This document shows positions 31,371 through 46,119 of a stretch of DNA of 64,000 nucleotides, piece by piece. The stretch comes from Micavibrio sp. UBA7657 (GTDB lineage: Bacteria; Pseudomonadota; Alphaproteobacteria; Micavibrionales; Micavibrionaceae): contig DLHX01000018.1 in the NCBI GenBank assembly GCA_002483465.1, forward strand, positions 5,285-69,284, written 5' to 3'. Numbering within the stretch: the stretch's first letter is position 1; the number at the start of each line of letters is the position of its first letter. The position numbers and the translations under genes were made by a program. Below the pieces are notes generated by a model. It was not told the DNA's origin and made no database searches. It saw only the letters and a program-made list of their open reading frames with translations.

Positions 31371-32222
31371 TCAGATATTGCTGCCGGCCTTGGTACTTGC
31401 CTGGTAGTCCTGCGCCGCCCCGGGCGCGGGTTCAACGATCATACGGCTCTCTTCGCGTAGATCAACAGAAAGAATATCTTTTTCTAATAACCCCTCTTTT
31501 TCCACGGCTTCCGCCAGTTTCCGGAGGGCCAGCCCCGTTTCCCCTTCGGGCAGTTTGGCGGTAATATCATCCCGGAACACAAGATCCCAGCGCCGCCCGC
31601 CGATCCATTTCGCGGCCTTTACGCGGGACATGATCTGCGGCTCGGCCTCGAGGTTTTTGACCAGTTCGGGCGCACGCTCCGGTGCCCCCTCGCCCATAAC
31701 AATGACCAGATTTTTAAACCGCCCGAGATTTTCGCGGGTGATCGGCTTACCCTTCTCGTCCAGCAACTCCAGCGTGCCGCCTTCCTGCCAGAGCGCCAGC
31801 GGCTTTTTCTCCGTCAGCCCGACATAAATCGTATCCGGCAGGCGGCGCTCGACATGCGCATCGCGTATCCAGTTAATTCTTTTGATCTGCTCCTGCGCTG
31901 CAACGGGGTCGAAAGCGAATAACGGGTCGCCTTTTTCTGTAGCGATGATCGCTTTCAGTATCTCCGGGTTCGTATAAACACGTCCCTCGACCATAATATT
32001 CTGCACGGAAAAACCAGCTTCCGAAGTTCCCTCATGCACCTGCGCCGCCAGCCAGTCGCCGGTCCGGGTCGCGCTGCCGCTCAGGAAAAACCACGACCCT
32101 GCCCAAAAACTCAGACCCGCAATCGCCAGCGCGATGCCGAAACGTTTGAGCCATGGCATCAGCACGGAAAGCGGCCCCTTGCGCCGCTTGTTACCAGTGA
32201 ATTTGCTTTTATAGGTGGCCAT
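31371..32222 (-). CDS. ftsQ: cell division protein FtsQ
   Basis: Single transmembrane helix plus POTRA-like domain. Position between ddl and ftsA. Confidence 0.85.
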   Translation of the reverse strand: MATYKSKFTGNKRRKGPLSVLMPWLKRFGIALAIAGLSFWAGSWFFLSGSATRTGDWLAAQVHEGTSEAGFSVQNIMVEGRVYTNPEILKAIIATEKGDPLFAFDPVAAQEQIKRINWIRDAHVERRLPDTIYVGLTEKKPLALWQEGGTLELLDEKGKPITRENLGRFKNLVIVMGEGAPERAPELVKNLEAEPQIMSRVKAAKWIGGRRWDLVFRDDITAKLPEGETGLALRKLAEAVEKEGLLEKDILSVDLREESRMIVEPAPGAAQDYQASTKAGSNI

Positions 32223-33454
32223 TACAGCTGTCTCCGGAACAGACGCGCATCGACAGGGACAGAATCTTTCGGGAAATTTCTTTTTCTGCGTTCTTCAATC
32301 GCCTCTTCAATCAGCGCCGTCAGCAATTCCGAGAACAGTTTCGGCTCGGGTGCGGCCTCCCACAGGAAATAACCGATCGAGCCGGGCCACGGGTTGACTT
32401 CGTTCAACCAGATTTCGCCGCTCTTGGAATCACCGATAAAATCAATACGCGGCGCGCCGGTGCCATCCAGACCTTCATACATCTGCACCGCCCAGCGGCG
32501 GATATTTTCCTCGGTTTTCGCATCGAGCATCGGGTTGATTTCGCGTGTGAGCGACAGCATGCCCTGGCTTGCCTGTCCGGGCTGCTTGCTACCGCCCTTT
32601 TGGCCTTTTGTGCCGCCAGATAAATATTTCTTTTTGAAATCGAGCAGCTCTTCGTTGTTTTTCGGACGTTCGATGGCCGATGTCTTCACGCTGCCGAATG
32701 CCTTCGTCACCGCGACATTATATTCGACCATATTGGGAACGAACGGCTCAACCACCGCCACCTCGTCAAATTCAAAAATCGACGGCAGGCAGGCCGCGAT
32801 TTCTTCGGCGTTCGTTGCCTTTGCTACGCCGATGGAGCTGCCCAGATGCGCGGGCTTAACAATGCATGGAAAACCTATATTTTTTTCGCGCAGCGTCTCT
32901 TCAATTTTGCCGCGCGCGATCATGTACCCTTCTGTGGGCCGTTTCAGCACCGCGCAAGGCAGAACCGGGATGCCAATCCCCTGCATCGCTTTTTTCGTCG
33001 CAGCCTTGTCCATCAGGACGGATGAAGCCAGCGTTCTCATGCCTGCATAGGCGACGCCCGCCATTTCAAACAGGCCCTGCAGATTGCCGTCCTCACCAAA
33101 CAAGCCATGGAAGGATGGAATGGCCACATCGAATTCAATCGTCTTGCCGCCGCTGAACAGCCCGGTTTTCTTGGGCAGCAACCGCCCGGTTTTCCCCGCC
33201 GTGACATCCAGCGTCACTTCCTGCGTCTGCGCCCGGCTGTTGGCATGGAGCATATAATTCTCGCGCTTCCGCAAAACATCGCCGGTCAGCCACACGCCGT
33301 CCGGGGTGATATAGACCGGGAAGGCTTCGAACTTCGGATCTATCGCCCCCAGAATCTGCAGACCGGTCACCACCGAGACATCATGCTCGGGCGAGCGGCC
33401 GCCAAAAAACACGGCGATGCGTTTTTGAGATTTTATTCCTTTTTGGGATTGCAT
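32222..33454 (-). CDS. ddl: D-alanine--D-alanine ligase, long DdlA-like form with an extended loop
   Basis: IAVFFGGRSPEHDVSVVTG, FHGLFGEDGNLQGLFEMAGVAYAG and NEVNPWPG. At 410 aa it carries a Gly/Lys/Gln-rich insertion (SGGTKGQKGGSKQPGQASQG). Confidence 0.85.
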   Translation of the reverse strand: MQSQKGIKSQKRIAVFFGGRSPEHDVSVVTGLQILGAIDPKFEAFPVYITPDGVWLTGDVLRKRENYMLHANSRAQTQEVTLDVTAGKTGRLLPKKTGLFSGGKTIEFDVAIPSFHGLFGEDGNLQGLFEMAGVAYAGMRTLASSVLMDKAATKKAMQGIGIPVLPCAVLKRPTEGYMIARGKIEETLREKNIGFPCIVKPAHLGSSIGVAKATNAEEIAACLPSIFEFDEVAVVEPFVPNMVEYNVAVTKAFGSVKTSAIERPKNNEELLDFKKKYLSGGTKGQKGGSKQPGQASQGMLSLTREINPMLDAKTEENIRRWAVQMYEGLDGTGAPRIDFIGDSKSGEIWLNEVNPWPGSIGYFLWEAAPEPKLFSELLTALIEEAIEERRKRNFPKDSVPVDARLFRRQL

Positions 33455-33505
33455 GATTTTACTATTCGTCCGGGCGTGCTATGACAGTTACGGCAACATT
33501 AAAGC

Positions 33506-34306
33506 ATGAAAAACATAGTGATTAAAGATAATTTGGCCACGCCAGTGACGTCACTCATAAGCTCTGAAAGCCTTGGGAAAAAGGATTCTCCCGTGGTGGT
33601 CTGGGGGCATGGCTGGGGCCAGAGCCGCAAGGCCTTCCGTCCGCTCGCTGAAGGGCTTGAATCCTTCGGCACCCATATCCTTGTTGATTTTCCCGGTTTC
33701 GGTGACAGCCCCATGCCGCTCGAACCGTGGGGCACAGCCGAATACGCCGATGCTGTCGCCGAGTTCCTGAGACAAAATTCAAACGGTCCTGTCATCTGGG
33801 TCGGGCATTCATTTGGGTGCCGTGTGGGCCTGCAACTGGCCTCGCGCCACCCTGATCTCATCTCGGGGCTCTTCTTAATTGCCGGTGCAGGATTAAAGCG
33901 TAAGCGCCCGTTATGGCAGGACATTTATTTCAAAACGCGCACTCTCGTTTTTAAAGTTTTGAAGAAATTTATTCCTCTCGGCCTGTCCGAAGACTGGCTC
34001 CGCTCCAAATTCGGCAGCACGGATTATAAAAATGCCGGGGCGCTGCGCTCCATCCTTGTCAAAACCATTGGCGAGGATTTATCAGATGTGGCGCGAACCG
34101 TTTCCTGCCCCACAGCATTAGTGTACGGCATGAACGACACCGAAACCCCTCCCGAAATCGGACAGAGACTGCAGAAACTCATCCCCGGCGCTGAACTGAC
34201 CATTCTTCCCGGGCAGGACCACTACAGCGTCCTCGGCGAAGGACGCCACCAGGTCGCGCCTTTACTCAAGCAATTCATGGAGAGAATAGATGCCCGTATT
34301 CGCTAG
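33506..34306 (+). CDS. alpha/beta hydrolase
   Basis: VVWGHGWGQS, DFPGFGDSP, and the nucleophile elbow GHSFGC. The 3' end overlaps the next gene by 17 nt. Confidence 0.8.
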   Translation: MKNIVIKDNLATPVTSLISSESLGKKDSPVVVWGHGWGQSRKAFRPLAEGLESFGTHILVDFPGFGDSPMPLEPWGTAEYADAVAEFLRQNSNGPVIWVGHSFGCRVGLQLASRHPDLISGLFLIAGAGLKRKRPLWQDIYFKTRTLVFKVLKKFIPLGLSEDWLRSKFGSTDYKNAGALRSILVKTIGEDLSDVARTVSCPTALVYGMNDTETPPEIGQRLQKLIPGAELTILPGQDHYSVLGEGRHQVAPLLKQFMERIDARIR

Positions 34307-35882
34307 CACACTCGGCCTTCTTTTGGTTTATGCCGCATGGCTTGCCTTCGCGACGAAGCGCACATCGACTTATCTCCATATCTACCAGCAGGAGGAATAT
34401 GACAGCGGGCGGTTCCTGCGCTGGATGGCGCGTAGTGGCGCCATCGACACGCGCTTTACGCTCGTCCTTCTCATCATCGACGCTTTCTGGCTGCTGTTTC
34501 CCTCGCCCTGGTACATTTTCCTGTTTTTCATAGCCTTTGCCGCCGCCGCCGTCCTTGAGGACGATCCGCGTCATGCCGCGAAAAAGAAACTTGTCCTCAC
34601 GCCGCGCGCACAGCGTATTCTGTTCCTGACGGTTGTGCTTTCCGCCCTGATGGCGACATGGTTCCTCGTCTTTTACTTCCCGTTCTTCTGGATTTTGAAC
34701 GTGCAACTCATCCCGTTCGTCATGCTGGTCGCCAATCTCGCACTCACGCCTTATGAGAATCACGTCCAGAAAAAATACTGGGATCAGGCGCACCGGAAAC
34801 TCGTCGATCTCAAGCCCGTCACGGTGGGTATTACCGGCTCGTTCGGCAAAACATCGGTTAAACATATCCTCGGCCATATCCTGAAAACCCACGCGCCGAC
34901 GCTCATTACACCGGGCAGCGTCAATAGCCCCATGGGCGTGACACGCATCATCCGCGAACAGCTCGAGGACAATCATAAATTCTTTGTCGTCGAGATGGGC
35001 GCTTACGGTCCCGGATCGATCGAACGCCTTTGTCGCCTTGCACCGCCAGACATGGGCATTATCACCGCCGTCGGCCATGCGCATTACGAGCGCTTCAAAA
35101 CCATTGAAACAGTTGCCAAGGCAAAATTCGAACTGGCTCAAGCCGTGCTCGATAAAAAAGGCAAAATTATCACGCACGAAAAACCGCTCGATATCGAATA
35201 CGCGAAAATTAAAACCCGCGAGAACCGCAGCAGCTTCATCATCGTCGGCGAAACGCCGGTAAGCGATGCGATCATTGAGCGCGCCGAACAATTGCCCGAG
35301 GGCCTGCGGGTTTTTATCCGCTGGAACGGCGATAGTTACAGACTGGAGGCGCCGCTTTACGGCCTGCACCACGCGCAGAACATGGCGCTGGCCTTTACTG
35401 CCGCCGTCACCTTGGGTATTCCCGCCGAAAACGCCGTCACCGCGCTCAAATCCGTGCCGCAGATCACGCACCGCCTTGAAGTCAAAAGACCCGGCGACGG
35501 CACGACGCTCATCGACGACGCCTTCAACTCCAACCCTGTCGGCTTCGCCTCGGCGCTCGACCTCCTGCCCGTGCTCGGACGGCAGGGCCGCAAAATCCTC
35601 ATCACGCCCGGCATGGTCGAGCTCGGTGAGGCACACGCTGAAGAGCATGAAAAAATTGGCAAGAAGGCTGGTGAAATCTGCGACGTCATTATCATCGTGC
35701 AGGGCAAGCGCATCCCGACCTTCATGGAGGGCGCGCGGGCGACCGGCAGCACGAAGACCTTCATCGAAGTCGATACGTTCCAGCAGGCGAATGCGTGGCT
35801 TGATCAAAACCGCAAGGACGGCGACGTGATTTTAATTGAAAATGATTTGCCGGATCTTTATGAGCGGAAACTGAAGATCTAG
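34290..35882 (+). CDS. MurF-family Mur ligase with an N-terminal polytopic membrane domain
   Basis: Residues 1-150 hold about four hydrophobic helices. Then come the Mur ligase P-loop GITGSFGKTS, GSVNSPMGV, VVEMGAYGPGSI, AVGHAHYERF, the C-domain DDAFNSNP and PGMVELGE. GGAGAG Shine-Dalgarno. The strand is opposite to the rest of the dcw cluster. Confidence 0.85.
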   Translation: MPVFASTLGLLLVYAAWLAFATKRTSTYLHIYQQEEYDSGRFLRWMARSGAIDTRFTLVLLIIDAFWLLFPSPWYIFLFFIAFAAAAVLEDDPRHAAKKKLVLTPRAQRILFLTVVLSALMATWFLVFYFPFFWILNVQLIPFVMLVANLALTPYENHVQKKYWDQAHRKLVDLKPVTVGITGSFGKTSVKHILGHILKTHAPTLITPGSVNSPMGVTRIIREQLEDNHKFFVVEMGAYGPGSIERLCRLAPPDMGIITAVGHAHYERFKTIETVAKAKFELAQAVLDKKGKIITHEKPLDIEYAKIKTRENRSSFIIVGETPVSDAIIERAEQLPEGLRVFIRWNGDSYRLEAPLYGLHHAQNMALAFTAAVTLGIPAENAVTALKSVPQITHRLEVKRPGDGTTLIDDAFNSNPVGFASALDLLPVLGRQGRKILITPGMVELGEAHAEEHEKIGKKAGEICDVIIIVQGKRIPTFMEGARATGSTKTFIEVDTFQQANAWLDQNRKDGDVILIENDLPDLYERKLKI

Positions 35883-36760
35883 CGCTCCCCAACAATATTA
35901 ATTTCCCAGCGCAGGTTGATGCCAAGCTGTTCCTTTGCGCGGCGGCGAATTTCCTCGCCGAGATTCTCTAAATCGGCTGCAGTAGCATCGCCCGTATTAA
36001 TCATAAAATTCGAATGCATCGGCGACATCTGTGCCCCGCCGATCTTCAATTCGTGACCGCCGACTTTCTGTACGATTTGCCATGCCTTCAATTCGCCGGA
36101 CGGATTGGCAAAAGTCGAGCCGCCGGTTTTCTCGCGAATAGGCTGCGTCTCGTTGCGCTTGGTTTTAATTTCATTCATCCGCGCCTTGACGGTTTCATAA
36201 TCCTCACGCCTGCCCTTGAAAATCGCGCTCGTAAAAACCGCGCCTTTTGGCGGGTCGGTGTGGCGATAGGTCATGTGCAAATCTTCCGGCACAAATTTTT
36301 TGATCTCACCCTGCCGCGTCACGGCGTTGATTCCGGTTAAAACATCCTTCACTTCCGTGCCGTATGCGCCAGCATTCATGCGCAGCGCGCCGCCGACGCA
36401 TCCCGGGATGCCCGATAAAAATTCCAGCCCGCCGATGCCTGCTTTCACCGCCGCCGCTGCAACCGATCCGTTCAGCGCGCCCGCGCCCGCCTCGATATAA
36501 TCGCCAAGGACTTTAATCTCCGAAAATTCCTTGCCGAGCTGGATGGTCAAGCCGCGAATGCCGCCGTCGCGGATGATGGTGTTGGCGAGCCCGCCGAGCA
36601 CGGTCACTTCACCGTCATGCTCTTTCAAAAATTGCGCGAGTTCATCGGCGTGAGCCGGGCGCAACAACTGGTCCGCATTGCCGCCGCAGCCGAACCAGCT
36701 TTCTTTGCCGAGGGGAAAATTTTCAAGAACCTGACCAAGCATCTGCTCTTTATTCATCAT
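35879..36760 (-). CDS. murB: UDP-N-acetylenolpyruvoylglucosamine reductase
   Basis: MurB FAD-binding and C-terminal motifs (..WFGCGGNAD.., GGLANTIIRDGG, GSTFANP). The ATG at 36760 is preferred; the track's 36832 start would overlap the upstream ORF by 83 nt. Confidence 0.9.
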   Translation of the reverse strand: MMNKEQMLGQVLENFPLGKESWFGCGGNADQLLRPAHADELAQFLKEHDGEVTVLGGLANTIIRDGGIRGLTIQLGKEFSEIKVLGDYIEAGAGALNGSVAAAAVKAGIGGLEFLSGIPGCVGGALRMNAGAYGTEVKDVLTGINAVTRQGEIKKFVPEDLHMTYRHTDPPKGAVFTSAIFKGRREDYETVKARMNEIKTKRNETQPIREKTGGSTFANPSGELKAWQIVQKVGGHELKIGGAQMSPMHSNFMINTGDATAADLENLGEEIRRRAKEQLGINLRWEINIVGER

Positions 36761-37199
36761 TGATGACTGCATATTCACCATCGAGTGTGAAATTGGCGTT
36801 TTCTTTAAGAGTGCAATCGTTTTTATACCCACTCTTTAAATGTGGCCTTAAGCCTTTCTTCTCAATTTTTATAACTATTTTATTTTTTATGAAAGCAAAA
36901 GCCCACAATCCATCATCATCCACATTAGGCAATTTATTTTCAAAATCCCCTAAATAAGATTGCGAATTCTTAATGATTTCCTCAGGATCTGAATAAGGGG
37001 ATAAAATACAAACTGTATCCCAATCATAATTTGTAACTTCGGCCAGATACACTTTTGAGGAAGATTTAAATTTTTCGTTCGTTTTATTCCAAAAACTATT
37101 CGTTAGTTCTGAAATTATAATGGAAAGAAAAAATCCGGCAATCATTAAACAAGGAACACCAAACAATATTCCAAATAGCCATAGAAAAAAAATTCTCAT
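36750..37199 (-). CDS. hypothetical membrane-anchored protein (AT-rich insertion)
   Basis: N-terminal hydrophobic anchor FFLWLFGILFGVPCLMIAGFFLSIII plus a roughly 115-aa soluble domain. Two sampled lines are 28% and 35% G+C. The start shares a base with the murC stop (TAATG). Confidence 0.6.
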   Translation of the reverse strand: MRIFFLWLFGILFGVPCLMIAGFFLSIIISELTNSFWNKTNEKFKSSSKVYLAEVTNYDWDTVCILSPYSDPEEIIKNSQSYLGDFENKLPNVDDDGLWAFAFIKNKIVIKIEKKGLRPHLKSGYKNDCTLKENANFTLDGEYAVINDE

Positions 37200-38707: not shown

Positions 38708-39454
38708 TTACATAAATTTGCGCTTTTTGAAAACCCGAACATCCAAAGCTGTAAGATTAAACCACTCACCATTGAGATGTTTATCTTTGAATCTGTTATG
38801 CCAGTAAGTTTCTATTCCACTCGGATCATCTGTGCGTATGCTATGAATAGGTTCAATTTTTTCAGGCAATTGTATGCCAATCTCGTACTGGCGCCGATCA
38901 AGTGCCTTAGTACACCCAATTTTATAATTCTTTCCTGATTTCATAAGATAAACAAAACCAAAATCTTCCTGATCCCTAAAATCCTCAACATCCTCTTCTA
39001 CTGAAGTGGTATGCCCTGTTATTAGAGGCTCACAAATTTCTAATATGTCTTGGTACTCGTCAGGAGTTTGACGACAAAAATTCTTTACCGCCTCTATCAT
39101 GCTCTTTTTTTTGCCGAGGTTTTTAGCGAAGGTAGCGTAATCGGGAAAATGTTCATTACGAGCAGATTCTCGTTTGAATTCCACCTTCATAGGAAAATGG
39201 CCTAATGTTCTGATGAATGTAATAAGTTTTTCAATAAGAATATCTTGGCCATACGCTCCTTGAAATTGATTGGGCGTATAACCAGCTTCTGCCTGAACAT
39301 CGCTCCAACGATTCCAATCATTCCAAGCTTTTCCCAACCAATCATCTCGCTTGATGCCGGTAGCCTGAAAGAATTGGCCCATTCCTAAAGGCTTGCCACC
39401 ATTTTTTTCAGCGGTTCTTTTGATTTCGCTCAGAATGTGCTGTTTTTTATCCAT
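38708..39454 (-). CDS. GIY-YIG superfamily (T5orf172/MUG113-like) nuclease with two N-terminal homing-endonuclease-associated repeats
   Basis: C-terminus GFVYLMKSGKNYKIGCT..LDRRQYE...IHSIRTDD....E..WHNRFKDKHLNGEWFNL. The N-terminal half is two roughly 55-aa repeats (ILSEIKRTAEKNGGKPL..W..W......AGY and ILIEKLITFIRTLGHFPM...F). Two sampled lines are 33% and 38% G+C. Confidence 0.75.
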   Translation of the reverse strand: MDKKQHILSEIKRTAEKNGGKPLGMGQFFQATGIKRDDWLGKAWNDWNRWSDVQAEAGYTPNQFQGAYGQDILIEKLITFIRTLGHFPMKVEFKRESARNEHFPDYATFAKNLGKKKSMIEAVKNFCRQTPDEYQDILEICEPLITGHTTSVEEDVEDFRDQEDFGFVYLMKSGKNYKIGCTKALDRRQYEIGIQLPEKIEPIHSIRTDDPSGIETYWHNRFKDKHLNGEWFNLTALDVRVFKKRKFM

Positions 39455-43158: not shown

Positions 43159-44244
43159 TCATCGCAATTTTAGCGTCGACAGGCCGATCAGCGCGAGAAT
43201 GAAAGCAATAATCCAGAAACGGATAACAACCGTAGGCTCTGACCATCCCTTTTTTTCGAAATGGTGATGGATGGGCGCCATGGCAAAGACGCGCTTACCC
43301 GTCAGTTTGAATGATACAACCTGAATAATCACCGAGACTGTCTCGAGCACGAACACGCCGCCGATAATCGCGAGCACCAGTTCGTGCTTCGTGATCACAG
43401 CAATGGTACCGAGCACACCACCCATCGCCAACGAACCCGTATCGCCCATAAAAATCATTGCCGGCGGCGCGTTATACCAGAGGAAGCCCATCGCCCCACC
43501 GATCAGCGCACCGCACAAGACCGCCAGTTCCCCAGTTCCCGGCACATAAGGAACATTGAGATATTCCGCGAAATCAGCGCGGCCCACGAGATAAGCGATC
43601 AGGCCGAAGCACCCGGCAGCAATCGCCACAGGTACAATCGCAAGACCGTCGAGGCCATCCGTCAAATTCACCGCATTGGATGAACCTACAACCACGAACA
43701 GCGCCCACGGCGCAAAAAACCAGCCGACATTAATAAAAAGCTCCTTGAAGAAAGGAATGGCGATATGAGTGCTGAGTGTATCAGGCATCGTCACCATAAT
43801 GCCGATCGTAGCGCTGAGGCCGATGATGAATTGCAAAAGAAGTTTCAGTTTTCCCGGCAGGCCCTTCGTATTTCTCTTGGTCAGCTTTAAATAATCATCG
43901 CCGAAACCGATCAAGCCGTATCCCACCATCACCAGCAGCGCATACCAGACAAAATTATTCGTCAGGTCGGCCCAGAGAAGTGTCGAGATCGAAACGGAAA
44001 TCAAAATCATCAGACCACCCATAGTCGGCGTGCCCGCTTTGGCAAAATGCGTTTGCGGTCCGTCGGTTCTGATGGGCTGCCCCTCTTTTTGTTTTTTCTT
44101 AAGCCAGCGGATCATCGCGGGCGCAATCAAAAAACAGATTACCAGCGCCGTCATGATCGCGCCGCCGGTTCTGAACGTGAGATAACGGAACAGGTTGAAG
44201 AAAAGAAATTCGTCGGCGAAGGGCGTCAGTAAATTATAAAGCAT
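43159..44244 (-). CDS. mraY: phospho-N-acetylmuramoyl-pentapeptide transferase
   Basis: [36 protein letters not shown]. The ATG at 44244 (residue 49 of the track ORF) is preferred; the upstream 48 aa are Arg/Cys-rich and overlap the preceding ORF. Confidence 0.95.
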
Positions 44245-44670
44245 AAGCTGTCTTTCCGCTTGGCATGACCCGCAGCGCCTCGATTGCAATTTTCTGGCGC
44301 GCTTTTTTGACGAACACGATGAAATCTCCCGGCGCCAACACCTCCGGCACGATCTTGTCCGTGCCCGGACTGCGTAAAATCTGGCCAATCACGTGATAAA
44401 CGTGGGAAACCGGCGTAATCGTCTTTGTCGTATAAACAACGTCGAGATTACCGATTTTACTCGGCATTGCCAACCGGGTCTTTTTAATGTTTTTGCGGCC
44501 GTCATGATCCGGCAGATAACCCTCCAGCATGGCTGTTTGCCGCCCGCCCCCGAGATCGATCAGGTTCCTGACCCGGAACACCGCGCAGGGCTCCTCGCGT
44601 TGCCTTTTGACACTGACGGTCACCGTCGGCGTCTTCAGGAAACTCCAGAAAGAGCGGTTATCAACGTTCA

Positions 44671-44674
<4 letters not shown>
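44234..44674 (-). CDS. hypothetical 146-aa protein occupying the murF slot; possible degenerate MurF C-terminal domain
   Basis: ATGA overlap with the murE stop and an 11-nt overlap with the mraY start; host-like composition. There is weak resemblance to MurF domain 3 ([18 protein letters not shown] vs ..LIDDSYNANP.SM.AAL..L; [11 protein letters not shown]....IEAL vs PGDVVLVKGSR..ME.VVEAL). Confidence 0.55.

Positions 44675-46111
<1,437 letters not shown>

Positions 46112-46119
<8 letters not shown>

Follow-up and report, generated by a model that had tools for sequence, protein, structure and literature searches.

A putative membrane-anchored MurF-type ligase in the dcw cluster of Micavibrio sp. 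UBA7657 and its neighbours, an EstV-like hydrolase and a DdlA-type ligase

A 64,000-nucleotide (nt) stretch of Micavibrio sp. UBA7657 DNA (GenBank assembly GCA_002483465.1, contig DLHX01000018.1, positions 5,285 to 69,284; hereafter, the window) carries two plus-strand genes, for an alpha/beta hydrolase and a MurF-type ligase, between murB and ddl of its division and cell wall (dcw) cluster. The analysis indicates that these two genes and ddl very probably form a module of the same kind as ddl-estV-murF of Helicobacter pylori, with the ligase serving as the D-alanyl-D-alanine (D-Ala-D-Ala)-adding enzyme of the organism and likely replacing canonical murF. A membrane-anchored MurF is already known from H. 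pylori, and the window ligase is another member of this type. An earlier reading of the letters alone (the sequence-only reading) had listed a membrane-tethered D-Ala-D-Ala-adding enzyme as one of two possibilities. This is the best-supported reading: the ligase has MurF-type domains, no other MurF is encoded in the 64 kb, murF is absent from 17 murE-mraY junctions, and the ligase falls in one clade with the MurF of H. pylori. From sequence comparison, we infer that the window ligase is catalytically active, is the sole MurF and uses uridine diphosphate-N-acetylmuramic acid (UDP-MurNAc)-tripeptide as its acceptor.

Organization of the locus

The minus strand of the window holds the dcw cluster in the order rsmH, ftsI, murE, an open reading frame (ORF) of 146 amino acids (aa), mraY, murD, ftsW and murG, followed by a MUG113/T5orf172 gene, murC, a 149-aa ORF and murB, and, beyond the two plus-strand genes, by ddl, ftsQ, ftsA, ftsZ, lpxC, bamD, recN and ligA. 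The hydrolase and ligase genes lie on the plus strand between murB and ddl, the remaining dcw genes being all on the minus strand, and their ORFs overlap by 17 nt, exactly as the sequence-only reading had described. The features of the module are as follows.

32222..33454, minus strand: DdlA-type D-alanine--D-alanine ligase, 410 aa, third gene of the module (Pfam, NCBIfam, synteny)
33455..33505, no strand: divergent intergenic spacer between ddl and the hydrolase gene, 51 bp with the longest ORFs (coordinates)
33506..34306, plus strand: EstV-like alpha/beta hydrolase, 266 aa (Pfam, NCBIfam, conserved triad columns)
34290..35882, plus strand: putative membrane-anchored MurF-type ligase, 530 aa (Pfam, NCBIfam, AlphaFold/Foldseek, tree)
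34290..34757, plus strand: predicted N-terminal membrane domain of the ligase, aa 1–156 (hydropathy, AlphaFold helices, lysine/arginine counts)
34830..35405, plus strand: Mur ligase central (ATP-binding) domain, aa 181–372, with the P-loop GITGSFGKTS (PF08245, alignment)
35469..35837, plus strand: Mur ligase C-terminal domain, aa 394–516, with DDAFNSNP and PGMVELGE (PF02875, alignment)

An identical ligase and the same gene order were also found on contig JADKER010000001.1 (GCA_016717875.1). On the identical contig, gene callers give a Ddl of 404 aa and a hydrolase of 253 or 237 aa; because these starts are later, the spacer between ddl and the hydrolase gene could measure about 50–150 bp, and the 51 bp reported earlier applies to the longest ORFs. 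No sigma-70-like site was found in this spacer.

Catalytic domains of the ligase

Pfam analysis revealed that the ligase contains the Mur_ligase_M (PF08245; aa 181–372; E-value, 3.6e-33) and Mur_ligase_C (PF02875; aa 394–516; E-value, 2.8e-10) domains, while the N-terminal Mur_ligase domain (PF01225) was not found in it. The top NCBIfam model is murF (TIGR01143), which matches with 216.9 bits, below its cutoff of 288.6, over profile positions 65–403 of 418; the MurD, MurE and MurC models give 67, 54 and 53 bits, respectively. The scores of the MurT (20.5 bits; cutoff, 800) and PgsB (15.6 bits; cutoff, 222.7) models place the window ligase outside both of these families by the NCBIfam cutoffs.

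The AlphaFold model of the ligase, built with 35 homologues as input, has a mean predicted local distance difference test (pLDDT) score of 85.6. Its nine top Foldseek matches in the PDB are all MurF (E-values from 1e-22 to 1e-18), with the alignment of about 367 columns covering the two catalytic domains only. At the residue level, as compared with the MurF proteins of Acinetobacter baumannii and Thermotoga maritima, GITGSFGKTS corresponds to the P-loop of MurF, the Mg/ATP residues agree as well, and DDAFNSNP and PGMVELGE align with DDTYNANP and GDIGELG of MurF (consensus DDxYNANP and GDxxELG). All of the motifs on which the MurF-type central and C-terminal domains had earlier been recognized (GITGSFGKTS, GSVNSPMGV, HAHYERF, DDAFNSNP, PGMVELGE) are present, and Pfam, TIGR01143 and Foldseek bear that recognition out.

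A hidden Markov model (HMM) built from eight canonical MurFs was run on the six-frame translation of the 64-kb window. The window ligase was the best match (226 bits; HMM positions 102–437), with MurE, MurC and MurD next, and no second MurF-like stretch was found in any of the six frames. Since this HMM matches only Mur ligases there, a remnant of MurF domain 1 is found nowhere in the window. Thus, the catalytic domains of the window ligase are of the MurF type and nearer to MurF than to other Mur-family ligases. The canonical enzymes of known structure (1gg4 of Escherichia coli, 4qf5 of A. baumannii, 4cvm of Pseudomonas aeruginosa and 3zl8 of T. maritima) share with it the central and C-terminal domains, the P-loop, the Mg/ATP residues, and the 'NxNP' and 'ELG' motifs. 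They differ from it in sequence (about 24% identity), in having domain 1 where the window ligase has a predicted five-helix membrane domain, and in that the window gene is not located between murE and mraY.

The N-terminal membrane domain

Residues 1–155 of the ligase are hydrophobic, with transmembrane (TM) helices predicted at about 4–22, 56–71, 75–89, 109–128 and 134–152; the AlphaFold model places helices at 3–34, 39–49, 54–69, 74–89, 105–121, 132–139 and 141–174. Over 35 homologues, lysine and arginine residues number about seven in each of the loops 23–55 and 90–108, and none are found in the turns 72–74 and 129–133. Taken together, hydropathy, the AlphaFold model and the lysine/arginine counts indicate five predicted TM helices with the N-terminus outside and the ligase part cytoplasmic. 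The sequence-only reading, in which about 150 N-terminal residues with roughly four hydrophobic helices replaced domain 1, was therefore right in seeing a membrane-embedded region and one helix short in its count.

The most conserved parts of the membrane domain are the two predicted cytoplasmic loops, 'LHxxQQEEY' at 29–37 and 'KKKLVxTxRAxR' at 98–109. Invariant residues are R24, H30, Q33, Q34, E35, Y37, R41 and D53, and, further on, E90, K98–K100, L101, T104 and R106; the motifs "L.xxQQ..Y" and "KKxLVxTxRxxR" are kept across phyla. A HMMER search with residues 1–170 against 1.84 billion representatives gave 324 matching proteins, in which the domain is always at the N-terminus of proteins of about 500–570 aa, or of fragments, and in no case in another architecture. 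Because all of the 324 matches share this N-terminal position, the membrane domain is specific to this ligase type. No Pfam model was found for it.

These loops are among the arguments for a different acceptor. It is unlikely, though worth setting out, that, close to the second possibility of the sequence-only reading, D-Ala-D-Ala is added not to UDP-MurNAc-tripeptide but to a lipid-linked acceptor (undecaprenyl-pyrophosphate-MurNAc-tripeptide, or lipid I/II lacking D-Ala-D-Ala). The TM helices would in that case hold the polyprenyl tail and the juxtamembrane loop rich in lysine and arginine the pyrophosphate, and the hydrolase would trim damaged or tetrapeptide stems for rebuilding. Such a substrate would fit a membrane domain that has invariant loops in the place of the UDP-binding domain 1, is confined to this architecture, and keeps its loops from H. 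pylori to Firmicutes. Mur-family ligases devoid of domain 1 act on non-UDP substrates, which also counts for a lipid acceptor: MurT, together with GatD, carries out lipid II amidation on a lipid-linked substrate, and PgsB/CapB, of which PgsB is membrane-associated, serve in poly-gamma-glutamate synthesis. Like these proteins, the window ligase lacks the UDP-binding N-terminal domain. However, its sequence affinity to them is very weak, MurT (20 bits) and PgsB (16 bits) being far more distant from it than MurF is, and neither GatD nor a PgsC/PgsA partner is encoded next to it.

A three-gene module across bacteria

More than 100 homologues of the ligase, with 50–96% identity, were retrieved from metagenome-assembled genomes (MAGs) of Micavibrio-like bacteria and Rhodospirillales; their source names are inconsistent ("Mur ligase"/"Mur ligase family protein" or MurF). 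For the analysis of genomic context, seven contexts of the same or closely related proteins were combined with the best 80 of at least 596 genome matches, giving 87 loci (designated here by L numbers). The matches came from a scan of one genome per species, and the ORFs were labelled by phmmer against the window proteins. The best 80 loci derive from Alphaproteobacteria (including Labrys okinawensis, Blastochloris and Kordiimonas), Acidobacteria, Bacteroidales, Clostridia, Bacillaceae, Chlamydiae, Poribacteria, Melainabacteria and others.

The hydrolase gene is located directly upstream of the ligase gene in 76 of the 87 loci, and a long-form ddl is found within the fetched flank of the pair in 70 of them. 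The ddl gene lies downstream on the same strand in Firmicutes, Bacteroidales, Chlamydiae and Poribacteria, and is divergently oriented in Alphaproteobacteria and Acidobacteria. Since ddl accompanies the hydrolase-ligase pair across about 10 phyla, ddl at 32222–33454 belongs to the unit as well: the insertion described earlier as a two-gene unit beside ddl is a real pair within a set of three. Thus, ddl, the EstV-like hydrolase gene and the TM ligase gene constitute one ancient, widely distributed module. The genes flanking it are housekeeping genes, e.g., those for H+-PPase, RNase R and isoleucyl-tRNA synthetase, not regulators, and no VanH-like dehydrogenase, racemase or two-component regulator was found in the window or the sampled loci.

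Several loci have features of their own. VanX/DdpX-like M15 genes stand beside the module in Labrys okinawensis (L014:8386-9195), an Obscuribacterales MAG (L035:8129-8947) and two Pseudalkalibacillus genomes (L071:13071-13796 and L083:13080-13805), in the latter two with a class B penicillin-binding protein (PBP) gene next to them. In a Waddliaceae MAG (L050:9470-11557), a single 695-aa ORF combines a hydrolase fragment (matching aa 98–209) with the TM ligase; the two may be truly fused, or the hydrolase gene may be frameshifted or degraded.

Two other possible associations were considered and set aside. A mobile or plasmid-borne resistance cassette was sought by tblastn against 72,556 plasmids, which returned only canonical MurFs (residues ~167–518) and no TM type. 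Listeria monocytogenes (NZ_LR134399.1; L095:2057-5386) has ddl, a canonical murF and a gene for a 237-aa alpha/beta-fold hydrolase side by side on the same strand. The hydrolase does not resemble EstV (BLASTP E-value of 0.004 to the window hydrolase; weak BioH match only), and the cluster was treated as either a coincidence or a separate, independent association of ddl, murF and a hydrolase gene.

The Helicobacter pylori relative

A PDB query with the C-terminal half of the window Ddl gave H. pylori Ddl (2pvp) as the best match; the signatures 'LDFK.KYL' and 'NP.PGS' are common to 2pvp and the module Ddls. We take this Ddl to be HP0738 and the neighbouring HP0739 to be EstV. Metagenome contigs scanned with a 100-aa fragment of 2pvp yielded L096 (96% identity; 1.69-Mb contig), L097 (95%) and 78 more distant relatives (61–70%), which are presumably other Campylobacterota. 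On L096, three genes stand in a row: ddl (NF002527; 402 bits, above cutoff), a gene for a 241-aa EstV (NF058580; 326.5 bits, above the cutoff of 300), and one for a 493-aa ligase, which the EstV gene overlaps by 14 nt. The order ddl-hydrolase-TM ligase was found in 34 of the 56 Campylobacterota-like loci with enough flanking sequence.

The L096 ligase gene is 1485 bp long with its stop codon, and H. pylori murF is HP0740, 1485 bp (PMC6501431). The L096 ligase matches TIGR01143 with 152.9 bits, also below cutoff, over profile positions 63–403. As this match starts at position 63, the L096 ligase too is without domain 1. Its N-terminus is hydrophobic, and phmmer aligns it with window residues 71–522, "KRNDKPLVFTPRVKRFF" standing opposite "HAAKKKLVLTPRAQRILF" in the window and "LQWYHY" opposite "YQQEEY". 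The loop motifs 'K.LV.T.R.KR' and 'Q..Y' align between the two proteins, and loop 1 is divergent. In a neighbour-joining tree, 22 TM ligases, including that of H. pylori and three other Campylobacterota-like sequences, group together in 100 of 100 bootstraps; eight canonical MurFs are placed next to this clade, with a node support of only 37–50%.

The H. pylori and window systems thus share the trio of ddl, an EstV-type hydrolase gene and a ligase gene, a short hydrolase-ligase overlap (14 vs 17 nt), and a ligase with a hydrophobic N-terminus and without MurF domain 1. They differ in several respects: the two ligases have 27% identity over 468 aligned positions; that of H. pylori is 493 aa long, with a shorter N-terminus and 'LQWYHY' instead of 'QQEEY' in the first loop; the hydrolases score 326.5 (H. 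pylori) and 99 bits (window) with the EstV model, whose cutoff is 300; and ddl-estV-murF of H. pylori lie on one strand, whereas the window ddl is divergent and the module lies inside the dcw cluster.

H. pylori MurF is reported to have four N-terminal TM domains (PMC9448923, citing Blair et al. 2018) and to be an essential peptidoglycan precursor enzyme and inner-membrane protein (PMC6501431, PMC9448923, PMC9507126). The sequence-only reading had not recognized the architecture as a characterized system; with an essential H. pylori MurF reported to carry four TM domains (PMC9448923, PMC9507126), a precedent exists.

The canonical murF slot

The sequence-only reading had also described the canonical murF position of the window as gutted. 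The features at this position are listed below.

44671..46119, minus strand: murE, upstream flank of the murF slot (NCBIfam NF001124; 586 bits, above cutoff)
44234..44674, minus strand: conserved 146-aa ORF in the murF slot (sequence, 124 homologues)
43159..44244, minus strand: mraY, downstream flank of the murF slot (Pfam Glycos_transf_4 and MraY_sig1)

The true start of mraY is probably the ATG at 44244, as gene calls on the identical contig give 361 aa. The start of the slot ORF overlaps the stop of murE, and its stop overlaps the start of mraY (translational coupling). In 12 Micavibrio-like loci, the module is found at the ddl position and the murE-mraY junction is filled by a conserved ORF of 146–158 aa. 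In five Poribacteria loci, the order is ftsI-murE-hydrolase-TM ligase-ddl-mraY; being located between murE and mraY, the module of Poribacteria occupies the exact murF slot. Overall, murF was not found at the murE-mraY junction in any of the 17 loci where the junction is visible. Based on these results, the module most likely displaced canonical murF in this Micavibrio-like lineage.

The slot ORF has 124 homologues of 112–180 aa, which are unnamed and restricted to Micavibrio-like MAGs. It has no Pfam match, and a Foldseek search with its AlphaFold model (pLDDT, 60) returned nothing at E ≤ 0.001. The possibility that the ORF is a remnant of MurF, or its domain 1 in detached form, was considered and rejected: hhalign against canonical MurF gave a probability of 0.1, and the canonical-MurF HMM found nothing there. 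The earlier description was hence correct in that no murF stands at the junction, and mistaken in that the slot is filled by a conserved, unrelated ORF. For many of the slot ORF homologues, the longest contig is given with the same length as for a homologue of the TM ligase, suggesting that the two genes reside on common contigs. The ORF could encode a partner, specific to this lineage, of either the TM-MurF or MraY.

Two loci deserve separate mention. A 'Bdellovibrionales' MAG (JBAZNY010000011.1; L022:4434-11548) carries on one strand genes for an 810-aa tandem Ddl-Ddl fusion, a canonical MurF, an M15 dipeptidase, an EstV-like hydrolase and the TM ligase, followed downstream by a class A PBP gene, i.e., two MurF types in one D-Ala-D-Ala cluster. 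In an alphaproteobacterial MAG from the Hadza gut (L026:14567-17409), mraY comes directly after ftsI, murE and murF both being absent from between them; the hydrolase-TM ligase pair lies 3 kb upstream of the cluster, and no ddl is present within 10 kb.

The canonical MurF beside the TM ligase on L022 would suit the repair role that goes with a lipid-linked acceptor. On the other hand, the TM ligase is apparently the only MurF in H. pylori, Poribacteria and Micavibrio-like genomes, and MraY looks canonical, so that the same soluble substrate is the simplest reading.

The module Ddl

The window Ddl contains the Pfam domains Dala_Dala_lig_N and Dala_Dala_lig_C and scores up to 228 bits, below cutoff, with the NCBIfam D-Ala-D-Ala ligase models. 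Its catalytic residues, including K-Y of the omega-loop, are conserved over 68 homologues, and the module Ddls of Bacteroidales and Bacillaceae match Staphylococcus aureus Ddl and DdlA (3i12/3q1k) at 1e-60 to 1e-66. By its sequence, the module Ddl is thus classified as an ordinary D-Ala-D-Ala ligase of the DdlA type. The omega-loop K-Y of the window Ddl is immediately followed by about 17 inserted residues rich in Gly and Lys (aa ~278–297); this insertion differs in sequence from one module Ddl to another, and H. pylori Ddl has part of it.

The insertion and the scores below the NCBIfam cutoffs, taken together with the co-occurrence of canonical MurF and the TM ligase on L022 and with the VanX-like M15 dipeptidases flanking the module in L014, L022, L035, L071 and L083, might point to an accessory paralogue. 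In that scenario, canonical murF would be located elsewhere, and the module would build an alternative stem terminus or a conditional Van-like pathway, the hydrolase removing the normal terminus. We consider this very improbable. The omega-loop K-Y and the catalytic residues of a D-Ala-D-Ala ligase are conserved, module Ddls match DdlA down to 1e-66, and the H. pylori module Ddl passes the NCBIfam D-Ala-D-Ala ligase cutoff. In addition, the genes otherwise expected beside such a pathway (VanH-like dehydrogenase, racemase, two-component regulator) are missing from the window and the sampled loci, the neighbours are housekeeping genes, and inside dcw clusters the module stands in the place of murF and ddl. 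The Van cassettes (VanA/VanH/VanX) resemble the module in that a Ddl-family ligase is clustered with hydrolases and that VanX-like M15 genes occur at five of the loci. They differ from it in that the window has no VanH, regulator or M15 gene, its Ddl keeps the omega-loop Tyr, and the module brings its own MurF. With neither VanH nor VanRS genes in the window or the sampled loci and a Ddl of the D-Ala-D-Ala type, a Van-like alternative-terminus cassette was rejected.

The EstV-like hydrolase

The hydrolase belongs to the Abhydrolase_1 and Abhydrolase_6 families of Pfam and has a predicted catalytic triad of Ser102 (GHSFG), Asp211 and His239, columns that are conserved in 71 homologues. The Ser and His of the triad align with those of BioH, the nearest PDB entry (2e-12). 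The top NCBIfam match is NF058580 ('EstV family lipase'; 98.8 bits; profile positions 15–226 of 230), which is also the top model for module hydrolases of three other phyla; over the four phyla, the matches are nearly full-length and range from 99 to 137 bits, below 300. As 98.8 bits compares with a cutoff of 300, the window hydrolase is a relative of EstV, not an equivalog. EstV itself is a lipase of H. pylori, whose genome has the estV gene between ddl and murF. As a guess, the window hydrolase, which is co-translated with the ligase, might trim or edit precursor stem peptides or esters.

The NCBIfam description of EstV as a lipase and the weak similarity of the window hydrolase to the OlsI and BioH esterases could suggest a membrane ligase outside peptidoglycan synthesis, which, partnered by the esterase, would attach a peptide to a lipid or some other carboxylate. 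This reading is hardly credible in view of the constant linkage to ddl, the dcw positions, the MurF-type C-terminal motifs and the clade with H. pylori MurF.

Interpretation

In the mechanism proposed for the module, the DdlA-type ligase would make D-Ala-D-Ala, and the five-helix domain, in place of MurF domain 1, would hold the MurF-type ligase at the cytoplasmic face of the inner membrane. There, the ligase would use ATP to activate the meso-diaminopimelate (mDAP) carboxylate of the MurNAc-tripeptide precursor and then attach the dipeptide D-Ala-D-Ala, beside MraY. The module would have taken over the roles of canonical murF and ddl in this lineage.

Several observations weigh against assigning the MurF role to the window ligase in this way. 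The ligase scores under the NCBIfam murF cutoff and is without domain 1, which binds the UDP moiety in canonical MurF, and H. pylori MurF was so named from annotation and essentiality. The strong conservation of the cytoplasmic loops suggests that the TM domain may do more than anchor the protein passively. A D-Ala-D-Ala dipeptidase (Peptidase_M15) adjoins the module in five of the 87 loci, from four phyla. The sequence-only reading would have been weakened if the pair proved widespread in genomes that keep an intact canonical murF, with a function already assigned, or if a normal murF were present elsewhere in this genome. The pair is indeed widespread, and at least one contig, L022, also has a canonical murF: its full-length MurF matches TIGR01143 with 333 bits, above cutoff, three genes upstream of the hydrolase-TM ligase pair. 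Given this coexistence, the TM type and canonical MurF do not strictly exclude each other, and Labrys okinawensis and Pseudalkalibacillus, with their large genomes, probably keep a canonical MurF as well. In Micavibrio sp. UBA7657 itself, the search for a canonical murF covers the 64-kb window.

The role of the hydrolase, the invariant loops and the M15 neighbours are left unexplained by the assignment of the ligase as a MurF, which therefore leaves room for a lipid-linked acceptor or precursor editing. It is conceivable, if rather doubtful, that the membrane domain is a substrate handler whose loops bind the pyrophosphate of lipid-linked MurNAc-tripeptide or dock MraY, and that the EstV-type hydrolase is a precursor editor trimming tetrapeptide or aberrant termini for re-addition of D-Ala-D-Ala.

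Other features of the window

The stop codons of the plus-strand ligase gene and the minus-strand murB overlap by 4 nt tail to tail (35879-35882), and transcription is therefore convergent without room for a terminator; relatives have a gap at this position, e.g., 66 nt in L006. Between murG and murC, the 248-aa MUG113/T5orf172 (GIY-YIG-like) gene (38708-39454, minus strand) is found only in the near-identical contigs L001–L003 and is missing from L037, a relative with 86% identity; it looks like a recent mobile insertion within the dcw cluster. The 149-aa ORF between murC and murB (36750-37199, minus strand) overlaps the murB start, has a weak DUF6724 match (E-value, 4e-4) and is likewise present only in L001–L003; in L037, murC abuts murB directly.

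Significance

No paper on Micavibrio murF was found in the literature searched, nor were the breadth of the family, the three-gene module linking EstV to the D-Ala-D-Ala branch, the loop motifs or the displacement of murF in two lineages. Papers on the Lipocone and on pseudomurein contained nothing pertinent either. MurF catalyses an essential, drug-targeted step of cell-wall synthesis. Its membrane-anchored form is not peculiar to H. pylori: it represents a monophyletic type distributed over about 10 phyla, whose gene is almost invariably accompanied by those for an EstV-like hydrolase and a DdlA-type ligase. Canonical murF appears to have been displaced from the dcw cluster in at least two lineages, the Micavibrio-like alphaproteobacteria and Poribacteria. 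With regard to annotation, the TM-MurFs fall under the NCBIfam murF cutoff. For EstV, the genomic linkage points to peptidoglycan precursors, not lipids, as the substrate.

These findings raise the questions of why the MurF step is tethered to the membrane and what the conserved loops bind, and whether inhibitors built on canonical MurF, including its domain 1, suit Helicobacter and Campylobacter. Should the membrane domain prove to be a substrate handler, this type of MurF would act on the lipid cycle or feed straight into it.

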